Assembly: GCA_943349725.1 (NCBI GenBank)
Contig: CALQZP010000001.1
Span: 5,401-69,400 of the forward strand
Direction of reading: 5' to 3'
Origin: Candidatus Nomurabacteria bacterium
Lineage (GTDB): Bacteria; Patescibacteriota; Minisyncoccia; Phycocordibacterales; UBA10002
Length of the DNA stretch: 64,000 bases
The translations under genes and the position numbers were made by a program. This document shows positions 3,865-17,845 of this stretch, piece by piece (position 1 is the first letter of the stretch; every line of letters begins with the position of its first letter). Below the pieces are notes generated by a model that was not told the origin of the DNA, did no database searches, and saw nothing but the letters and a program-made list of their open reading frames with translations.

Positions 3865-4137
3865 ATGAACTCACTCATCAGTGTTCGCATAGACCCAAAA
3901 ACGAAAAAATCCGCGCAAAAGACACTCGAAGAACTGGGGCTTGACCTCTCCGCAGGTATTACCTTGTTCCTCGAACAGGTTATTGAAACCGAGTCTATCC
4001 CCTTCACCATTGCAACAAAGCGGGGGCATACACTAAGGCACTGGAAGCTCTACAAGAAAGAAATTGCGTGGGCAAAAAAACATGGAAAAGGCTACCGAAC
4101 AGCTGAAGAAATGCATGCGGATATCTTGAAAGGTTAA
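3865..4137 (+). CDS. RelB/DinJ-family antitoxin
   Basis: 90 aa; SVRIDPKTKKSAQKTLEELGLDLSAGITLFLEQV matches the DinJ ribbon-helix-helix antitoxin. Confidence 0.7.
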   Translation: MNSLISVRIDPKTKKSAQKTLEELGLDLSAGITLFLEQVIETESIPFTIATKRGHTLRHWKLYKKEIAWAKKHGKGYRTAEEMHADILKG

Positions 4138-4225: not shown

Positions 4226-4426
4226 ATGCTTGATAGAGTCTTAAATGTACTTGCCTCGGGCAACCTACTTCCCTTGCGATACGGCAACCACCCCTTGCAA
4301 GGAGAATATACGGGCTGTTTTGAGTGTCACATCAAGGGCGACTTACTTCTCATCTATGAAGTCGACGAGCTCAAGCAAATCTTGACACTTGTTACGATTG
4401 GTAGTCATTCGGAACTCTTTAGATAG
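4226..4426 (+). CDS. YafQ/RelE-family toxin, C-terminal two-thirds (N-terminus in another frame, see findings)
   Basis: GNHPLQGEYTGCFECHIKGDLLLIYEVDE...IGSHSELF is a very close match to the YafQ catalytic core; an in-frame ATG start is missing. Confidence 0.6.
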   Translation: MLDRVLNVLASGNLLPLRYGNHPLQGEYTGCFECHIKGDLLLIYEVDELKQILTLVTIGSHSELFR

Positions 4427-6080
4427 GACGTAGGTGTCGTTCATAAATGGTGAACACCGCTTCACTGCGGGGATTATAGACATAGTGTGGCGGAAGACCT
4501 TTGGTGAGCTCGGTAAAGGCTGGGTCGGGCACGATGTTTCCTTCCACGAAATAGAAGTCTCGAAATCCTGACCGCTCGTAATAGTCCGCTCCATTTTCAC
4601 GAAGGTACTGCTGATACGTTGCAAAATCTATAATCGGCCAACCGTGATATATCTTTAATCGGTCAAGCCTCCAGAGTTTTGCCCCGTGGTCAAAGTTACC
4701 GTACGTTACGATGAGTGCGGGATACGGAAGATACCCCTTCCGCTCCCCTTTCCTGATAGAGGTATCCTGTTCTCTTTCTATAAACGCGTACTGCATCCTA
4801 AAGGTCGCCGAGGGAATTTTCCTCGCCAGTTCACGGTCGAAATAGTCGCCAAGCTCGTTGTAGCCCCAGTTGTAATTCTCGTAGCGTATCTTGGACGAAA
4901 GCCACGGCTTTTGCCCTACCGGGTAATATGCGATTTGATTATTTATTGAATAGAAAACCTCAAAAAGTAAAACGGGGACGAGTAACCACAAAAAGTATTT
5001 TCTGAGCTGTAGGTGCGTTTGCAAAAACGCCCCGACAGAAAGCGCGAGAAACGGAGTGAGCATCGCAAGAAATCGGAACCCGGGACCAATAACCGCGAGA
5101 AGGAGCAGGAGGTACCCGAGACTAATGAGGAGAAACGGGCTACGCAAAAAGAAAAGCGCGACCCCGGCGAGGGCGAGAAATAGCCACGAATGCGAACCGA
5201 CAAGGCGCGGAAAGAAATCTTGCGCGCGTTCAAGAAGTGAACCGACCTCCTTCCCCGGAGCCACCTGCCACTCCTTCGGGTTTTGCCCGAACACATAGGA
5301 AAACTGAAAATCAAAATGCCCGACGGTTTTATACAGCATCACGTTGTAGATGATAACGGGCGAAAAGATGACGACGGCGAGAGAGAGTGCGAGCCACAAA
5401 TCTTTGCGTCGAAATGCTTCGCGGTGATAGAGAAGCAAAAACGTGCCGAAGATGGGGAACAAAATAAAAGCGTTGTACTTTGTAAGAAGCGCAAGTCCTA
5501 GGGTAATACCGAGCGGTATAAAGGAACGGCCTTCACGCACTGCCCGCAAAAAAAGGTACGAGGCGAGTAGTAAAAAGAAAATAACAAAAGATTCCTGCAT
5601 TCCCACGCGAGAAATATAGATATGATTGAGTGTGACCGAAAGTAGACTGGCTGAAATCAGTCCCGCTGAGGCAGTAAACAGGAGCGAGCCGAGCAAAAAG
5701 ATAAGGTAGACCGAGGCGACTCCAAGGAGCGCGGACGGTAGGCGCATAGCGAAATTATTTTCGCCAAATACCTTGATAGAGAGGTGCTGTACCCAAAAGA
5801 CCAGTGGTGGATGGTCGTGAAATGAGAGGCTTGTCCAGAGAGGAGGCGCGGGGTCAAACCATTCAAGCGGAGTCGTCTGCTTCCCCGCCTCGTCAAAATC
5901 AAGGAGTCCCACGGCACGAAATCCATAGAACACTTCGTCGTTCACCGTATCACCACGTGAAATCCACCCCACACGGAGCAACGCGGAAACAAAAAGAATG
6001 GCGAGAAGTACTTTTTTTACGGTAGTGGCAGACACACTGAAAAAATACCACCGAACTTCGTGGTACACAAGACACCTCAC
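4419..6080 (-). CDS. GT39-family (PMT/ArnT-like) polyprenol-phosphate-sugar dependent glycosyltransferase
   Basis: 553 aa, about 11 TM helices plus a soluble C-terminal domain; architecture and N-terminal loop typical of dolichyl-phosphate-mannose protein mannosyltransferase-like GT-C enzymes. Confidence 0.55.
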   Translation of the reverse strand: MRCLVYHEVRWYFFSVSATTVKKVLLAILFVSALLRVGWISRGDTVNDEVFYGFRAVGLLDFDEAGKQTTPLEWFDPAPPLWTSLSFHDHPPLVFWVQHLSIKVFGENNFAMRLPSALLGVASVYLIFLLGSLLFTASAGLISASLLSVTLNHIYISRVGMQESFVIFFLLLASYLFLRAVREGRSFIPLGITLGLALLTKYNAFILFPIFGTFLLLYHREAFRRKDLWLALSLAVVIFSPVIIYNVMLYKTVGHFDFQFSYVFGQNPKEWQVAPGKEVGSLLERAQDFFPRLVGSHSWLFLALAGVALFFLRSPFLLISLGYLLLLLAVIGPGFRFLAMLTPFLALSVGAFLQTHLQLRKYFLWLLVPVLLFEVFYSINNQIAYYPVGQKPWLSSKIRYENYNWGYNELGDYFDRELARKIPSATFRMQYAFIEREQDTSIRKGERKGYLPYPALIVTYGNFDHGAKLWRLDRLKIYHGWPIIDFATYQQYLRENGADYYERSGFRDFYFVEGNIVPDPAFTELTKGLPPHYVYNPRSEAVFTIYERHLRPI

Positions 6081-6111
6081 TCTCGTAGCAAAAGTGTTGT
6101 AAACTTGAGGT

Positions 6112-7611
6112 ATGTTACAGAAACTCTCCGACCAAAAAATTTTCTGGGGAATGATAACGCTCTATGTTGTTGTTTTTGGAACCCTTACGGTTTTGCGCCA
6201 TGACAATTTTCAAACGCAAACGTGGGATATGGGAATCTTTACACAATCCTTTTGGAACGCGTCTCATGGCCGTGGACTCGTGAACACCATAGAACAGGTG
6301 CCAAACCATCTGGGCGTGCACTACAGTCCCTTTCTCTTTTTGCTTGTTCCCGGATATGCACTTTTCCAAGGTTTCTCTGCACAGGCGGGTCCCTACTACC
6401 TCCTTATCATGCAGGCACTCGCGCTCGCGCTCGGAGCCTGGCCTCTTTTCCTCCTCGCAAAAAAGCTCCTCGCTGAACAAAGCATTACTTCTTCATGGTG
6501 GCCTTTCGCGATTACCCTAGCCTACCTCCTCTATCCCCCGCTCCATGCGTTACAGATGTACGATTTTCATGAAGTCGCCTTCTTTGTCCCTCTCTTGCTC
6601 TTCGCCCTCTATTTTCTTGAGACAAAAAAATGGCTCTGGGCGGGATTGTTTTTACTTCTCGCAGGAGCCACCAAAGAAGATGCTATCCTTGTCGTCCTAT
6701 TTGTCGGACTGTTTCTACTGGCCAAGCGAACTTCTCTTCAGAAAAACGGCCTACCGTCAGGAAAGCGCACCAAGAATATAGTCGCGGGGATCATCATTGT
6801 TTCTGCTTTTGTGTATTTTCTTCTTGTTGCCAAAGTGCTCATGCCTGCGGAAGGTGGTGGTTTGTTACGAATTGATAGATACGCGCACCTTGGTGAAACG
6901 GGACTAGAGATAGTGAGTAGCGCGATAACTCATCCACTTCTGCTTCTACAGACGGTGGCTACCCTGCCGAAAATAGAATATTCCTTTTGGCTTCTGCTCC
7001 CGGTCTTGTTTCTCCCGCTTCTGTCGTGGCGAGCTCTCATCCTCCTTATCCCCGGACTCGCTGAAAACCTCCTCACCAATTACACACCTCAATTCAGCAG
7101 TGCGTATCATTATGATGCGCTGCTCATACCAGGACTGTTTCTCGCGACTATCTATGGTGCAAAAATTGCGTTGCTCAGATTTCCGGACAGAGAAAAACAA
7201 CTGCGTCTGCTTTTCCTAACCGCGATGCTTGTAGGCTTTCTGACCAACTCTCCGCTTCGTCCAACAGCTTTTCCGACCGATTATTTCCACACGTCCGAAA
7301 AAAAGGTGGCATATCAGAATCTGGTGCGCCTCGTTCCGCCAGAGGTAAGCGTGTCGGCCGATACCAATCTTGTTCCCCACATGGCGAACCGTGAAAAGAT
7401 ATACTTTGCTGGCTTCGAACCCGAGCTCTCCGATATCGCCTTGCTGAACACCGAGAATATGTTTGGTTTTGAAAACACAGAGACAATCGGAAACTATATT
7501 GAGAGTTATGAAAGATCAGGAGAGTACAACCTCTATGTCTTCGACGACCGGTATGTGGTTCTTCTCAATAAAAAATTGAAAGTGACTGGTTTACCCGCGC
7601 AGGCGCAGTAG
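6112..7611 (+). CDS. DUF2079-family polytopic membrane protein (putative GT-C glycosyltransferase)
   Basis: 499 aa; N-terminal RHDNF-TWDMGIFTQSFW motif and TM-rich layout match DUF2079. Confidence 0.45.
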   Translation: MLQKLSDQKIFWGMITLYVVVFGTLTVLRHDNFQTQTWDMGIFTQSFWNASHGRGLVNTIEQVPNHLGVHYSPFLFLLVPGYALFQGFSAQAGPYYLLIMQALALALGAWPLFLLAKKLLAEQSITSSWWPFAITLAYLLYPPLHALQMYDFHEVAFFVPLLLFALYFLETKKWLWAGLFLLLAGATKEDAILVVLFVGLFLLAKRTSLQKNGLPSGKRTKNIVAGIIIVSAFVYFLLVAKVLMPAEGGGLLRIDRYAHLGETGLEIVSSAITHPLLLLQTVATLPKIEYSFWLLLPVLFLPLLSWRALILLIPGLAENLLTNYTPQFSSAYHYDALLIPGLFLATIYGAKIALLRFPDREKQLRLLFLTAMLVGFLTNSPLRPTAFPTDYFHTSEKKVAYQNLVRLVPPEVSVSADTNLVPHMANREKIYFAGFEPELSDIALLNTENMFGFENTETIGNYIESYERSGEYNLYVFDDRYVVLLNKKLKVTGLPAQAQ

Positions 7612-8298
7612 AAAAACTTTCCAAAAACTCTCAAAGATGATGTTCCAGTTAAACTTTGACAAGCCGATCTTCCGTTCGGTAAAGGTAATCGGTATTTCAC
7701 AAATGCGAAATCCCGCTTTGTGCGCCAGGTAGGTGGTTTCAATCTGGAAGTTGTAGCCAACCGAACTCAAGGCAAGGAAGTCTATGGCTTCAAGTGCTTC
7801 TTTCCGGAAACATTTAAATCCACCGGTAAGGTCGTGGTACGAGAGACCCAAAATGATGCGCGCGTAGAGATTACCGAACTTGCTGATGAGTCTGCGAGAA
7901 AATCCCCATTGCTCTATCTTTCCACCCGGCACATACCGCGAACCGAGTACTAGGTCGGAGGCTTTTGAAGCAGTGAGCAGAGCAGGAATAACGAGAGGGT
8001 CGTGCGAGAGGTCGGCGTCCATTTGGATAATGCGCGAGCCCGCTGGAGCCTTAGAAAGCACCTCCTTAAACCCCGCCACATACGCGGTCCCTAGTCCCTG
8101 CTTCCCTTCCCGATGCAACACGCGGAGGGGATACTTCTTCGCAAGTTCGTCAGCAATCTTTCCGGTTCCATCGGGAGAATTGTCGTCCACCACCATAAGC
8201 TCAAGTTCGGGTATTTGCAACGCAAAAATCCTCTCCAACAAAATGGGGAGGTTCTCACGCTCATTGTAGGTTGGGATAACAATGAATGTCTTTGACAC
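7591..8298 (-). CDS. polyprenol/dolichol-phosphate mannosyltransferase (GT2, Dpm1/Ppm1-like)
   Basis: 235 aa; IVIPTYNEREN, MVVDDNSPDGT and the DAD motif are typical of the GT2 Dpm1 family. Confidence 0.85.
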   Translation of the reverse strand: MSKTFIVIPTYNERENLPILLERIFALQIPELELMVVDDNSPDGTGKIADELAKKYPLRVLHREGKQGLGTAYVAGFKEVLSKAPAGSRIIQMDADLSHDPLVIPALLTASKASDLVLGSRYVPGGKIEQWGFSRRLISKFGNLYARIILGLSYHDLTGGFKCFRKEALEAIDFLALSSVGYNFQIETTYLAHKAGFRICEIPITFTERKIGLSKFNWNIIFESFWKVFLLRLRG

Positions 8299-8361
8299 AG
8301 GTTGATTCTAGCAGAACGCGGAAAAAACTCATCTACACGGTATCTACCGTCGTGGCAAACA

Positions 8362-8447
8362 AATAAAGTTTGTCCTCGTCCTATCCCTGCCGAGGTCTTA
8401 CGAGGGAACAGCTTGCTGCGGGGGATAGGACGAGGACAAACTTTATT
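8362..8447. repeat. long perfect hairpin (26 bp stem aataaagtttgtcctcgtcctatccc), family copy 1
   Basis: Perfect inverted repeat seen directly; the stem sequence is shared with the hairpin at 54123-54206. Confidence 0.7.
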
Positions 8448-8482
8448 ATGGCATATTTTCGTGTTGTGCGCTTAAAAAACTC

Positions 8483-8634
8483 CTGTAACTCTCCACGCCT
8501 GTCGAAATAAGGCTCTCTTGTTCCTCCTTTACTAAAGGAGGTGCCGAGTCTCTCGAGGCGGAGGATTTTTAAATCCCTCGGCCTACGGCCACTCCCTTTA
8601 GTAAAGGGAGAATAAGATGTGTGGAGAGTTACAA
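8483..8634. repeat. nested multi-hairpin palindromic region
   Basis: Outer stem gtaactctccaca/tgtggagagttac encloses two smaller palindromes (cctcctttactaaaggagg and ctccctttagtaaagggag). Confidence 0.5.
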
Positions 8635-8690
8635 ACTCCTTGAAGTTGCAAAAAGAAAACCGCTCCATTCGCCGAGGCGAATTGGAGCGG

Positions 8691-8791
8691 TAATTTGTTG
8701 TGGTGAACGCCGCATCGTTCACCTGTTAACCCAAAGAACTATCGCGCAAAGCGGTGCGCGAGCCCGTTTTAGAAAACGGGCAAAATGTTAC
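8691..8791. repeat. about 100 nt direct repeat, copy 1 (palindrome gtgaacgccgcatcgttcac plus cccgttttagaaaacggg hairpin)
   Basis: Roughly 96% identical to 9528-9624; overlaps the stop codon of the 8788-9393 gene. Confidence 0.75.
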
Positions 8792-9393
8792 GGGTCGCAC
8801 TCCGCGAGGGAGTTGACCCTGGGAACCTCCGCGGGCGGATCGAGGAGAAGTTCCTCGACCGTCGGGAGTGAATCCTCCCCCCTCCGGAGTAGCCGTGGGC
8901 AGTCCACGACCACGAAGCCTCCGTTTACCAACGCCTCCTTGTTGAGGTGCCGGTTAACCGCGGCGAGCGGCCAAAGGGGGTGGATGGGCGACGGGGAGGG
9001 GTCCCACTCCCCGTGGAGCTCGTCCCAAAGCTCGCGGTACTCCCAGTCTTTCGCAGGGCGCTCGTGCGCCCGGCAGTGCTCGTTCCGCTCAAGCACATTC
9101 GCCCTCTTGGTGAGGGCCATTGCCGTTGGCACCCGGAGGAGCGGTGCCGGAATACACAACCTTTCGTCCCCACTTTCAAGGCGGAGGACAAAGAGGTCGT
9201 AGTGGGCCTGACTGGCGCACTCGCCGGCAGGGTCGTCCGTTTCGAGCTCGACGACGAGCCCCTTCGCCGCCTCTTCACCCCTGAACAGGGCGTCAAGGAG
9301 GAGGCAGAAGACCGTGTTTGGCAGGGTGTAATTTTCCCCTGCCCCGATGTCTTTCGCCCTGTCCGCGAGGGCGAAAAGTTTTTTGATATCCAT
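8788..9393 (-). CDS. hypothetical protein, GC-island paralog family (copy A2)
   Basis: Translation is about 70% identical, with conservative substitutions, to 33938-34564; start at MDIKKLFALADRAK is preceded by a GGAAAGGAAGT RBS. Confidence 0.65.
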   Translation of the reverse strand: MDIKKLFALADRAKDIGAGENYTLPNTVFCLLLDALFRGEEAAKGLVVELETDDPAGECASQAHYDLFVLRLESGDERLCIPAPLLRVPTAMALTKRANVLERNEHCRAHERPAKDWEYRELWDELHGEWDPSPSPIHPLWPLAAVNRHLNKEALVNGGFVVVDCPRLLRRGEDSLPTVEELLLDPPAEVPRVNSLAECDP

Positions 9394-9527
9394 ACTTCCT
9401 TTCCGGCGCAACATCGCGCCAAGAAGTTTTTTTCTCGATAGGCCGACGATTGGTTTCCACACACATGGAAATCCTCGGCCTAATGAAGTCCAGCACCAGA
9501 AAATCCTTCGATTTGTTGGTGCTGGAA

Positions 9528-9624
9528 ATTGTTGTGGTGAACGCCGAATCGCTCACCGTTAACCCAAAGAACTATCGCGCAAAGCGGTGCGCGAGCCCGT
9601 TTTAGAAAACGGGCAAAATGTTAC
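9528..9624. repeat. about 100 nt direct repeat, copy 2
   Basis: Near-identical to 8691-8791. Confidence 0.75.
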
Positions 9625-9657
9625 CCTTTCACCGCCCCGTAGGACGGCGGGAGGTGA

Positions 9658-10119
9658 TCAATACCCGACTGGGTACCACCACCTGGTGTGGCTCGGTCCC
9701 GGCTTCCACCTTGTCCCCGTGTCGGGGTGGGACTCGAATCCCTCCTGGTGGTTGGGGGTGTAAAACCCCTTCTCCACCTCCTCGTCCAAGTAGACGAGGT
9801 CGTTGAGGGTGGCCCGGCGGAGATGGGCCCAGTTATGCCTACACACGGAGCTCCCGCCCCAGTGGGAGACTCGTTGCGAGTCAACCCCCTCCCTGTACAC
9901 CCATGGGAGGGTGAACAGGGAATTCTCCCTGTTGTTTCTGGCCGAAACAACAACCCCCTGCTGATAGTGGGTTCCAAGAACCCACCCCTCCATATCGAGG
10001 GTGGCGTAGAAAACCCCGTCCTGCTGGTGCAGGTGACGGATGGACCCCTCCTTCGAGAAGTCCATAATTTCCGCCAACGAACCCGCCACCGCCACTCCCG
10101 TAATTTCAATTTTTTTCAT
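9658..10119 (-). CDS. hypothetical protein (GC-island gene A1)
   Basis: 153 aa ORF; AAGGAAG RBS before the ATG; about 65% GC; no recognised family. Confidence 0.5.
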   Translation of the reverse strand: MKKIEITGVAVAGSLAEIMDFSKEGSIRHLHQQDGVFYATLDMEGWVLGTHYQQGVVVSARNNRENSLFTLPWVYREGVDSQRVSHWGGSSVCRHNWAHLRRATLNDLVYLDEEVEKGFYTPNHQEGFESHPDTGTRWKPGPSHTRWWYPVGY

Positions 10120-10749
10120 TTTCTTCCTTCTTTTTCTCTTTTTTTTGTTGTTTGTTTCTTTGAACCCTGTTTAAAGTCGATGATTCAACGACTTTTGCCC
10201 AATGCTTACACAACATCGAGCTACCGAAACGACCGATTTCTCGGTCCTACCCAGAGCCTCCAGTTGGGCCAAGGGTGCTCTATCTCGGAATCGCAGTTAA
10301 TGAAATGCGACCCCTCTTGCTCTGCCGACACAGGTCGGCAAGGCGAAGAGGAGTAACATTTCGGAACGAATGACCGCTCCGCGTCTTCCTGTTTGAGGTT
10401 TTATCTTCACCTCAAACTTTCTTCTGCCTATTCGGTTGTCAAAGAATCAAACATACAGTATACCATGTACCATATATAAAGTCAATAGGTGGGGAGGGCT
10501 GAAAAAGCTATGATTAGAGCCATGAAAAACTCCGCCTTTATTGATGCGCAAACTGAAAAAGGAAGTCAGAGAGAAGATAACAGGACTTATGTACACCCCT
10601 CCCGCGCTAGACGCGTGTGTGCTCCCCTTGTTAGGGGAGAATTAAGACAAAGTTGCGTAAGTCCTAGATAAATTATATGAATAATCTTAATCATAAAATC
10701 GGCAGAGGTTGGAAACGAAAACGCACCGCGCAGACACGAGGACTGCGAG

Positions 10750-12072
10750 ATGCGTTTTCTTGTGAATGAACCTATGATAGCAGACCAAACAGAAAAGTCA
10801 GCAGGGTACGAGATGCCTCCGGCCGTACACGGAATGTCCTTACGGCATCTGGTCAGCACTCTCAAACTCCCCTACCACTACCTGCTCGCCATGCTTGGGG
10901 CCATTATTTATGGCTTCCCTTCACGAAAGTTAAACGTTATCGCCGTAACCGGAACTAAGGGTAAGAGCTCGGTAGTGGAGCTCATAAGCGCATTACTTGA
11001 TGAAGCGGGGTATAAAACCGCGCACGCTTCCACCATTCATTTCAAGATTGGCGACAAGATTGAACGGAATATGCACAAGATGACGATGCCGGGACGTTTT
11101 TTCCTCCAACATTTTCTGCGTAAAGCCGTTCAAGCCGGATGCACCCATGCGGTGATTGAGATGACCTCGGAAGGAGCACGACAGTTCAGACATAAGTTCA
11201 TCTTCCTCAATGCGCTTATCTTTACGAACCTCGCGCCAGAACACCTTGAGTCGCACGGCTCATACGAAAACTATGTTCGCGCCAAAGTGTCTATCGCGCG
11301 CGAACTTGAGAAATCACCAAAGAAAAATAAAATGCTTATTGTAAACGGTGAGGATGCGGAAGCGCACCGATTTCTGGAAGTGTTTACCGGCACCAAAAAG
11401 ATATTTAGTGCGAAGGACGCGGGAGGGCCGGTGGTTACGTCAGAGGGGATTTCATTCAATTGGCAGGGCGTTCGTATAGAATCATCACTTCCGGGGAAAT
11501 TTAACCTGTACAATATTCTTGCCACAGTAACGTATGCGGATACTCTAGGTATACCGTTGGAGAAAATTCAGTCAGGGATCAAGAAAATGAGGGGTATTTT
11601 GGGACGTGCACAAAAGATTGAAGGATCCGATTTCTCGGTCATCGTCGACTATGCGCACACTCCCGAATCACTTGAGCAGTTCTATGAAACCTACGCCGGA
11701 AAATACAAGCGGTGCATTTTGGGAAATACGGGAGGAGGGAGGGACACCTGGAAGCGTCCGGTGATGGCGGGTATTGCCGAAAAATACTGCGATGAGGTTA
11801 TTCTTACCAATGAAGACCCATACGACGAAGACCCCGAGAGGATTATTAGGGAGATGGCCGTCGGAATGAAGTACAAAGAACCATTACTCATTCTTGATCG
11901 TAGGACGGCTATCCGCGCAGCACTCCAAAAATCAACTAAAGGTGATTTTGTGCTCATTACCGGCAAAGGAACCGACCCGTTTATTATGGGTCCGAACGGC
12001 ACCAAAGAGGCGTGGGATGACGCAACCGTGGTGAAGGAGGAATTGCAGAAAATCCTAAATTCTAATATCTAA
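10750..12072 (+). CDS. Mur ligase family protein (MurE-like UDP-MurNAc-tripeptide synthetase)
   Basis: 440 aa; P-loop VIAVTGTKGKSS, DYAHTPESL motif, C-terminal Mur ligase domain. Confidence 0.7.
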   Translation: MRFLVNEPMIADQTEKSAGYEMPPAVHGMSLRHLVSTLKLPYHYLLAMLGAIIYGFPSRKLNVIAVTGTKGKSSVVELISALLDEAGYKTAHASTIHFKIGDKIERNMHKMTMPGRFFLQHFLRKAVQAGCTHAVIEMTSEGARQFRHKFIFLNALIFTNLAPEHLESHGSYENYVRAKVSIARELEKSPKKNKMLIVNGEDAEAHRFLEVFTGTKKIFSAKDAGGPVVTSEGISFNWQGVRIESSLPGKFNLYNILATVTYADTLGIPLEKIQSGIKKMRGILGRAQKIEGSDFSVIVDYAHTPESLEQFYETYAGKYKRCILGNTGGGRDTWKRPVMAGIAEKYCDEVILTNEDPYDEDPERIIREMAVGMKYKEPLLILDRRTAIRAALQKSTKGDFVLITGKGTDPFIMGPNGTKEAWDDATVVKEELQKILNSNI

Positions 12073-16909: not shown

Positions 16910-16982
16910 CCGCCCATAGCTCAGCTGGTAGAGCAGCTCGCTTTTAACGAGAAGGTCCTTGGTTCAAATCCAAGTGGGCGGA
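16910..16982 (+). tRNA. tRNA-Lys (anticodon TTT)
   Basis: Acceptor ccgccca/tgggcgg, D-arm gctc-agctggtag-agc, anticodon loop cTTTTaa, T-arm cttgg-ttcaaat-ccaag; close to canonical tRNA-Lys. Confidence 0.85.
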
Positions 16983-17017: not shown

Positions 17018-17845
17018 GTGGAATCTTTCAAAAATAAGTGCATTGCGCTACGAACGAAGGGGCTCACCCTAAGTCAAATAGTAGCCCGAACAAAACGCCC
17101 GAAAACGTCAGTGTATTTTCATATACGGAATATTCATTTACCCGAAGACCGAAAACAGGAAATACGCCGTGCAGCAACACAAAGATTTATCAATTACAAC
17201 AAGAGTAGAAAAGGTAAAAGCAGGATGAATCGTCATCCAATCCCGTTTGAGAAATGGAACGTGGCTCTTGTGTCCTTAGTGGGACATTTAATCTTTGACG
17301 GGGAAATAAAACACGGCGGATGCGTATATACAAATAGAAGCCTAGCGCTTCTTAAGCACGTTGCTGCGTGTATGCAAACGATATACCCGTTTGCGCCAAA
17401 AAGATACGAATCACTTCCAGGAGTTCATAAAATTGGATACCACAACGTAGAACTAAATGATTTCTTCAAGTCAAAAGCGAAGGAATTGATTGTGAAAATC
17501 AAATGTATGGAAAGAGAACTTCAACGTTCGTTCCTCCGAGCTTTTTTTGACGATGAAGGTTCCGTATACTTTATCGGCAAACGCAGAGCGATTAGAGGCT
17601 ACCAACACAATGCTAAAATGCTACACCTTGTGCAGCATCTGCTAAGAAACTTCAGCATAGAAAGCAAGGTGGACAGTAAATACAACGAAGTTACCATTAC
17701 CCGAAGAGAAAATATCTTACAATTTGCACAAGAAATAAATTTCTCCAAGGGACTGCGGATAAATGGGAATCGTTCAAACAGTATCTGGAAAGAGTCGCTT
17801 GAAAAACGTGAGTTGCTTCGGCGAGCACTTGCGTCATATGAGTGA
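17018..17845 (+). CDS. free-standing double-motif LAGLIDADG homing endonuclease-like protein with N-terminal HTH
   Basis: 275 aa; two LAGLIDADG-like motifs (LVGHLIFDGEI and FLRAFFDDEGSV). Confidence 0.6.
   Translation: MESFKNKCIALRTKGLTLSQIVARTKRPKTSVYFHIRNIHLPEDRKQEIRRAATQRFINYNKSRKGKSRMNRHPIPFEKWNVALVSLVGHLIFDGEIKHGGCVYTNRSLALLKHVAACMQTIYPFAPKRYESLPGVHKIGYHNVELNDFFKSKAKELIVKIKCMERELQRSFLRAFFDDEGSVYFIGKRRAIRGYQHNAKMLHLVQHLLRNFSIESKVDSKYNEVTITRRENILQFAQEINFSKGLRINGNRSNSIWKESLEKRELLRRALASYE

Follow-up and report, generated by a model that had tools for sequence, protein, structure and literature searches.

The window analysed here, a 64,000-nt stretch of the Candidatus Nomurabacteria contig CALQZP010000001.1 (positions 5,401 to 69,400; assembly GCA_943349725.1), contains a compact cluster of three genes, which encode a PMT_2-type membrane protein, a polytopic membrane protein of the DUF2079 family, and a family 2 glycosyltransferase (GT2) (Table 1). 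Our analysis suggests, with a probability of about 0.7, that these genes constitute an extracytoplasmic glycosylation module that depends on polyprenyl-phosphate-mannose and has two transferases of the GT-C fold. An earlier reading of the same DNA, made without database searches (hereafter, the sequence-only reading), had described three adjacent open reading frames (ORFs) here, and their coordinates and strands were borne out (4419-6080 on the minus strand, 553 aa from a GTG codon, for the first ORF; Table 1 for the other two). No paralogues of the three genes were found elsewhere in the window.

The start of the PMT_2 gene is more likely at 6035 than at 6080, because its relatives begin at the equivalent of window codon 16 (M-S-A in locus L025, GTG-TCT-GCC in the window); the profile alignment likewise begins at this codon. 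The divergent gap of 31 nt given in the sequence-only reading holds for the longest possible ORF only, and the spacer is probably 76 nt long. Both promoters presumably lie in this spacer; a sigma-70 consensus scan detected no promoter-like site in it, and in the promoter and terminator consensus scan the sites were no more frequent than in shuffled sequence. The convergent 3' overlap of the DUF2079 and GT2 genes, previously counted as 20 nt, is actually 21 nt. Relatives keep these two genes close together as well, with 3' ends that overlap by ~24 nt (L003) or ~4 nt (L006) or are separated by a gap of 106 nt (L012).

Table 1. Coordinates of the three-gene cluster and of neighbouring features in the window
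Feature	Position	Strand	Size	Remarks
PMT_2/GT39-like protein, predicted GT-C glycosyltransferase	4419..6035	-	538 aa	Start probably the GTG at 6035; 553 aa for the longest ORF, from 6080
Divergent intergenic region, PMT_2/DUF2079	6036..6111	.	76 nt	For the start at 6035; 31 nt if the longest ORF is taken
DUF2079 polytopic membrane protein	6112..7611	+	499 aa	Predicted GT-C-fold glycosyltransferase; C-terminal alpha/beta domain
Convergent 3'-end overlap, DUF2079/GT2 genes	7591..7611	.	21 nt	Both stop codons included
GT2 protein, predicted polyprenyl-phosphate mannose synthase (Ppm1/DPM1-like)	7591..8298	-	235 aa	Catalytic domain and interface helices only; no transmembrane domain
RelB-antitoxin-like ORF	3865-4137	+	90 aa	Pfam E 1.2e-11; flanked by ruvA and the PMT_2 gene's 3' end
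GC-rich insert	8300-10750		2.45 kb	GC content ~0.56 vs ~0.48; between the GT2 and Mur-ligase genes
Inverted repeat in the insert	8362-8387 / 8422-8447		26 nt	Perfect
Repeated element in the insert	8682-8791, 9516-9624		~110 nt	One after each insert ORF
Insert ORF 1	8788-9462	-	224 aa	No Pfam match, no meaningful PHROG match
Insert ORF 2	9658-10119	-	153 aa	No Pfam match, no meaningful PHROG match
tRNA gene	16910-16982
LAGLIDADG_3 homing-endonuclease-like ORF	17018-17845			Pfam E 8.9e-11; free-standing; 35 nt downstream of the tRNA gene

Features of the three gene products

The GT2 protein matches the Pfam profile Glycos_transf_2 (PF00535) with an E-value of 1.4e-29, far above the gathering score. 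Its best solved relative is the dolichyl-phosphate mannose synthase (DPMS) of Pyrococcus furiosus (PDB 5mlz; E 6.5e-44 over residues 3-230), and ArnC enzymes come next among the solved structures, at ~E 2e-11 or weaker. The functional residues of the P. furiosus enzyme (PfDPMS; PMC5526996) were transferred to the GT2 protein via a HMMER alignment, and 12 of the 16 are identical, namely Glu12, Asp39, Arg63, Leu69, Asp89, Asp91, His94, Arg117, Arg131, Ser135, Arg202, and Lys208 in PfDPMS numbering; their conservation in a set of 24 orthologues is 97% or higher. In PfDPMS, Asp39 reads guanine N1/N2, Arg117, Arg131, and Ser135 constitute the lipid-phosphate site, described as 'conserved in bona fide DPMSs', and Arg202 and Lys208 are located in the A-loop (PMC5526996). 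In GT2 numbering, D94-A-D96-L-S-H99 aligns with 89-DADLQH-94 of PfDPMS, which holds the DAD metal-binding motif, and the residues for the acceptor phosphate and the A-loop (R121, R135, S139, R209, and K215), as well as those contacting guanine and mannose (D39, L69, D94, H99, and R121), are all identical to their PfDPMS counterparts. Phe177 of PfDPMS is conservatively substituted by Tyr182, and Glu206 is replaced by Leu. The retention of residues that bind GDP-mannose and polyprenyl phosphate, together with the profile match, agrees with the polyprenol-phosphate mannose synthase proposed in the sequence-only reading.

A module of the same architecture that handles a lipid-linked sugar other than mannose, such as glucose, a GDP-linked deoxyhexose, or an amino sugar (as for GtrB-, ArnC-, or PpgS-like enzymes), appears quite improbable. 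GT2 polyprenyl-phosphate glycosyltransferases of differing sugar specificity have a common fold, the protein has weak NCBIfam matches to ArnC, AglJ, PgfS, and PpgS, and two donor-site residues differ from those of PfDPMS; however, the match to DPMS (153.6 bits) lies ~100 bits above that to any other solved enzyme (47 bits for the next), and the guanine-reading Asp39 and the residues near O2/O3 of mannose (Asp89, His94, and Leu69) are unchanged.

The GT2 protein ends past the second interface helix, and the four transmembrane (TM) helices of the archaeal enzyme are absent; it is a peripheral catalytic subunit with two amphipathic interface helices and no TM anchor. Eukaryotic DPM1 and the catalytic domain of actinobacterial Ppm1 are comparable peripheral catalytic subunits.

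The PMT_2 gene product matches the Pfam profiles PMT_2 (E 3.8e-30) and PMT (E 1.1e-14), both far above the gathering scores, is annotated by NCBI as 'GT39 family', and has Pmt4 as its closest structural match. It consists of ~13 predicted TM helices followed by a conserved C-terminal alpha/beta domain of ~170 aa. The conserved motif after TM1, G-D-x-x-N-D-E-V-F-Y-G-F-R (N-D-E-V-F-Y-G-F-R in the window), includes Asp33-Glu34 (538-aa numbering), which is invariant in 28 homologues; judging from the position of TM1 (residues 3-22) and the N-terminal lysines, this DE motif would lie in the first extracytoplasmic loop. The GT39 (PMT/ArnT-like) assignment of the sequence-only reading is consistent with the profile matches, and the GT-C loop motif for which it had suggested a check is present as an invariant DE. 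Pfam detected no PMT_4TMC or MIR domain at E <= 0.01, and the NCBIfam scores lie below the respective cut-offs for Pmt (NF058602; 24.6 vs 800 bits), for ArnT (NF009784; 33.4 vs 567 bits), and for the best match, Agl23 (TIGR03663; E 2.2e-13, 50 vs 126.25 bits). Because of the missing domains and the sub-threshold equivalog scores, we regard the protein as a putative PMT_2-type GT-C enzyme and not as a demonstrated orthologue of Pmt or of any other characterised transferase.

The third protein matches DUF2079 (PF09852) over profile positions 1-419 of 459 (E 1.4e-70, 239.1 bits against a cut-off of 28.2). No solved structure matched it by sequence, and its predicted model is of high confidence and shows a GT-C transmembrane architecture. 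The strong structural neighbours of the model are GT-C-fold proteins only, mostly lipid-phosphate-sugar transferases (ALG12, ALG9, ALG3, PIG-M, PimE, and Pmt). A profile-profile comparison of 44 DUF2079 and 32 PMT_2 sequences, drawn from the fetched loci, gave a probability of 85.8% (E 5.4e-6 over 350 columns), indicating that the two families are remotely homologous, and precomputed PMT_2 matches are present on some DUF2079 family members.

Asp39 of the DUF2079 protein immediately follows TM1 (helix 7-31) and does not vary among 26 sequences from Patescibacteria and Chloroflexota; His70, Phe152-His153, Glu189, Met244-Pro245, Pro422-His423, and Arg427 are likewise invariant, and Asp151 of the Asp-Phe-His motif is nearly so (at least 90%). 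An extended hhalign alignment of low confidence pairs Asp39 with the Asp of the DE motif in PMT_2. The start of external loop 1, where the invariant Asp39 lies, is the hallmark site of the GT-C catalytic or donor-binding acid. The confident fold model, this Asp, and the remote homology to PMT_2 favour the candidate GT-C transferase of the sequence-only reading, and the large membrane proteins, checked for matches to non-glycosyltransferase families, yielded none. We thus predict that the DUF2079 protein is a GT-C-fold glycosyltransferase, and its fold and its linkage to the GT2 gene suggest that it transfers sugar from a lipid-phosphate-linked donor. The family is large, with 13,806 cluster representatives (50% identity) at E <= 1e-10, and a full-text literature search found no papers mentioning DUF2079.

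Conservation and genomic context of the cluster

One genome per species was scanned with an alignment of 12 closer DUF2079 sequences as the query, which yielded 44 DUF2079 loci, nearly all from Patescibacteria and labelled chiefly with Parcubacteria-group names (e.g. Niyogibacteria and Harrisonbacteria). Neighbours were called by searching the ORFs of these loci with the three window proteins, and 33 loci had enough DNA on both sides. The arrangement of the window, PMT_2(-) DUF2079(+) GT2(-), is present in 19 of the 33, the divergent PMT_2 gene alone in 3, and neither partner in this arrangement in 11, including 3 loci (L043-L045) with a more distant PMT_2 gene in convergent orientation downstream. 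Since 19 of the 33 loci keep the same arrangement, the adjacency of the three genes is not due to chance, and the co-conservation that the sequence-only reading had proposed to look for in related genomes does exist. The form with all three genes typifies Parcubacteria-type genomes.

The identity of the DUF2079 proteins across the loci with the full arrangement is 43-63%. The flanking genes of the window (RuvA, Mur-ligase, and amidase) are common to the three closest loci only (L036, which is cut on the PMT_2 side, L003, and L025). Clustering of the flanking ORFs of 20 loci identified a methyltransferase gene as the commonest neighbour (9 loci); the other frequent neighbours, namely an RsmE-like gene and genes for a DUF4383 membrane protein, an Ig-repeat surface protein, and a cupredoxin, are each confined to one lineage. 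A small membrane protein adjoining the module in six loci belongs to DUF4383 and not to GtrA. That the three genes are mere neighbours with unrelated functions, kept together by the shared ancestry of the region, is extremely improbable and largely refuted: although the closest relatives carry the whole RuvA to Mur-ligase to amidase region and compact genomes pack unrelated genes tightly, the order and orientation of the three genes persist at 43-53% identity, where the flanking genes differ, no flanking gene exceeds 9 of 20 loci, and PMT_2 and DUF2079 are also paired, in a different orientation, in another phylum.

In this other phylum, in Anaerolineae, a long-form DUF2079 gene (~800 aa) is directly preceded and overlapped by a co-directional PMT_2 gene (L050 and L055). 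Given this occurrence outside Patescibacteria, the PMT_2-DUF2079 partnership is older and wider than the three-gene module. Long-form DUF2079 genes of Anaerolineae are also found in large clusters of polytopic GT-C-like genes (L055 1-18385, L053, and L054), which contain genes for PMT_2 (twice), PMT-like, GT87-like, GT2, LPG_synthase_TM, and phosphodiesterase proteins; this content suggests a larger envelope-glycan assembly locus. Some Patescibacteria have two DUF2079 paralogues in tandem (484 and 463 aa, with overlapping ends; L005 6001-8830) and no PMT_2 or GT2 neighbour, so that the diversification of the family extends past the three-gene module.

A reverse search of metagenomes with the GT2 protein detected mostly stand-alone homologues without DUF2079 or PMT_2 neighbours on high-GC soil contigs (50-57% identity). 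Given their large number, the GT2 enzyme is a member of a broad conserved family and was not invented for the module. DUF2079 or PMT_2 neighbours were confined to nine low-GC contigs resembling those of the candidate phyla radiation (CPR). In three of the nine, DUF2079 adjoins GT2; two of these (L057 and L058) have PMT_2 as well, and the third (L056) is cut at that point. In two, a long-form DUF2079 gene lies within ~3.5 kb of GT2. Among the nine contigs, a strong PMT_2 match adjoins in one and weak PMT_2 matches occur in two. Long ORFs upstream of the high-GC homologues were considered as Lnt-Ppm1 fusions like that of Mycobacterium tuberculosis and were rejected, as Pfam gave the GT2 domain alone.

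Several other features lie near the cluster in the window (Table 1). The GC-rich insert is absent from the closest relatives, and the corresponding gap in L003 is only ~90 bp. The last 67 nt of its two repeated elements are 100% identical and contain the palindrome GCCCGTTTTAGAAAACGGGC. This segment may be a small acquired or mobile island. A RelB-antitoxin-like ORF is present beyond the opposite end of the cluster, and a LAGLIDADG_3 ORF is located further downstream.

Proposed pathway and comparison with known systems

In the proposed pathway, the GT2 protein would act first, at the cytoplasmic face, and convert GDP-mannose and polyprenyl phosphate, the latter probably undecaprenyl phosphate, to polyprenyl-phosphate-mannose; this step is well supported, and the reaction is that of Dol-P-Man synthase and actinobacterial Ppm1. 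The lipid-linked mannose would next be translocated to the membrane's outer face. The PMT_2 and DUF2079 proteins, the former with an Asp-Glu motif of catalytic type in external loop 1 and the latter with the invariant Asp39 at the equivalent position, would then use this donor outside the membrane to mannosylate surface acceptors, for which protein Ser/Thr residues, a lipoglycan, or a wall polymer are candidates. Because the pair is fixed across lineages and its genes are co-directional and overlapping in Anaerolineae, the two GT-C proteins most likely work on one product, either sequentially (the PMT-like protein initiating and the DUF2079 protein extending) or as a complex. A full-text search found no relevant papers on CPR bacteria with GT39 or O-mannosylation.

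Several points weigh against this pathway. Two donor-site residues of PfDPMS are replaced in the GT2 protein (Gln93 by Ser and Lys178 by Asn183), and the PMT_2 protein scores below all curated equivalog cut-offs, so that its acceptor class is unreadable from homology. About one-third of the DUF2079 loci of Patescibacteria lack both partners nearby, indicating that the linkage is not obligatory family-wide, and the clustering of flanking ORFs (20 loci) detected no fourth co-conserved gene, whether for a flippase, the GDP-mannose pathway, or an acceptor. The main gap concerns the flippase: no GtrA, SMR, MATE, or Wzx-type gene is present among the called genes of the module and +/-10 kb around it. 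A gene for a DedA/VTT-domain membrane protein was observed ~2 kb upstream of window position 1 (L052 1897-2502), ~6 kb from the module. Because the DedA family is linked to polyprenyl-phosphate translocation, this gene is a flippase candidate, one that shows no co-conservation with the module.

The main rival explanation fills this gap from within the cluster: one of the two GT-C-fold proteins would be the flippase or scramblase for polyprenyl-phosphate-mannose, and the three genes would constitute a complete synthase-flippase-transferase system. In addition to the lack of a conventional flippase gene in the module or within +/-10 kb, this is suggested by the top NCBIfam match of the PMT_2 protein, TIGR03663 ('flippase activity-associated protein Agl23'), as Agl23 of Haloarcula has been proposed to be a flippase for hexose-P-dolichol and, when purified, translocated lipid-linked oligosaccharide in liposomes (PMC11182771). 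We consider this explanation improbable, because both proteins retain invariant acids at the GT-C catalytic position, as expected of transferases, and the TIGR03663 score is far under the family cut-off; moreover, such systems often have their flippase gene at another place in the genome, and the DedA/VTT gene lies upstream. A bolder reading, which is tentative and rather unlikely, is that one GT-C protein has been repurposed as the polyprenyl-phosphate-mannose translocator or does both jobs (cf. Agl23), or that the DUF2079 and PMT_2 proteins form an obligate hetero-complex like Pmt1-Pmt2 and found a new glycosyltransferase family for an envelope mannoconjugate that is specific to, and important for, the ultra-small CPR bacteria.

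The proposed module with two transferases resembles several known systems. In actinobacterial protein O-mannosylation by Ppm1 and Pmt (Rv2051c and Rv1002c in Mycobacterium; Ppm1 and Pmt in Streptomyces coelicolor), a GT2 mannose synthase without a TM domain of its own likewise supplies a GT39-type GT-C enzyme with a loop-1 DE motif. Unlike in that system, the window genes are clustered, the second GT-C protein (DUF2079) is a fixed member, the PMT_2 protein lacks PMT_4TMC and scores 24.6 against 800 for the Pmt equivalog, and there is no Lnt-like partner (Ppm2/D1). In comparison with the type III DPMS of P. furiosus (5mlz) and eukaryotic DPM1, the catalytic domain, the DAD motif, the R/R/S triad, the R/K residues of the A-loop, and both interface helices align, whereas the four C-terminal TM helices of the P. 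furiosus enzyme are missing, Q93 and K178 are replaced by S and N, and the lipid is presumably a bacterial polyprenyl phosphate instead of dolichyl phosphate. As in Agl22/Agl23 of Haloarcula hispanica, a GT2 lipid-sugar synthase appears to be functionally paired with a PMT_2-related polytopic protein; unlike Agl23, however, the window protein is not a TIGR03663 member (50 vs 126 bits), ends in a large C-terminal domain, and carries the invariant DE motif.

Three-component periplasmic glycosylation systems were reportedly treated by Mann and Whitfield in 2016. These systems consist of a polyprenyl-phosphate glycosyltransferase, a GT-C transferase, and a flippase (PMC11127046), and include GtrA/GtrB/Gtr*, ArnC/ArnEF/ArnT, CsbB/GtcA/YfhO, and the GT136 pentofuranose system. 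The window module shares with them a GT2-type polyprenyl-phosphate sugar synthase and a GT-C transferase predicted to act outside the membrane, but it has no GtrA/SMR/MATE flippase gene in the cluster, contains two different GT-C proteins instead of one, and probably uses a donor derived from GDP-mannose and not from a UDP-sugar. What sets the module apart is thus its two different GT-C proteins, one of them from an uncharacterised family, the lack of a flippase gene in the locus, and the fixed clustering of the three genes in a genome-reduced lineage.

The case extends a well-understood pathway logic and is not a new principle. With a Ppm1-type synthase and a GT39-like enzyme as its fixed partners, DUF2079 can be given a concrete and testable function, that of a GT-C transferase dependent on lipid-phosphate-mannose. 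The genomes of Patescibacteria are very small, and these bacteria rely on surface contact with hosts; the maintenance of the module in many of their lineages points to an undescribed mannose-containing envelope component on CPR cells.

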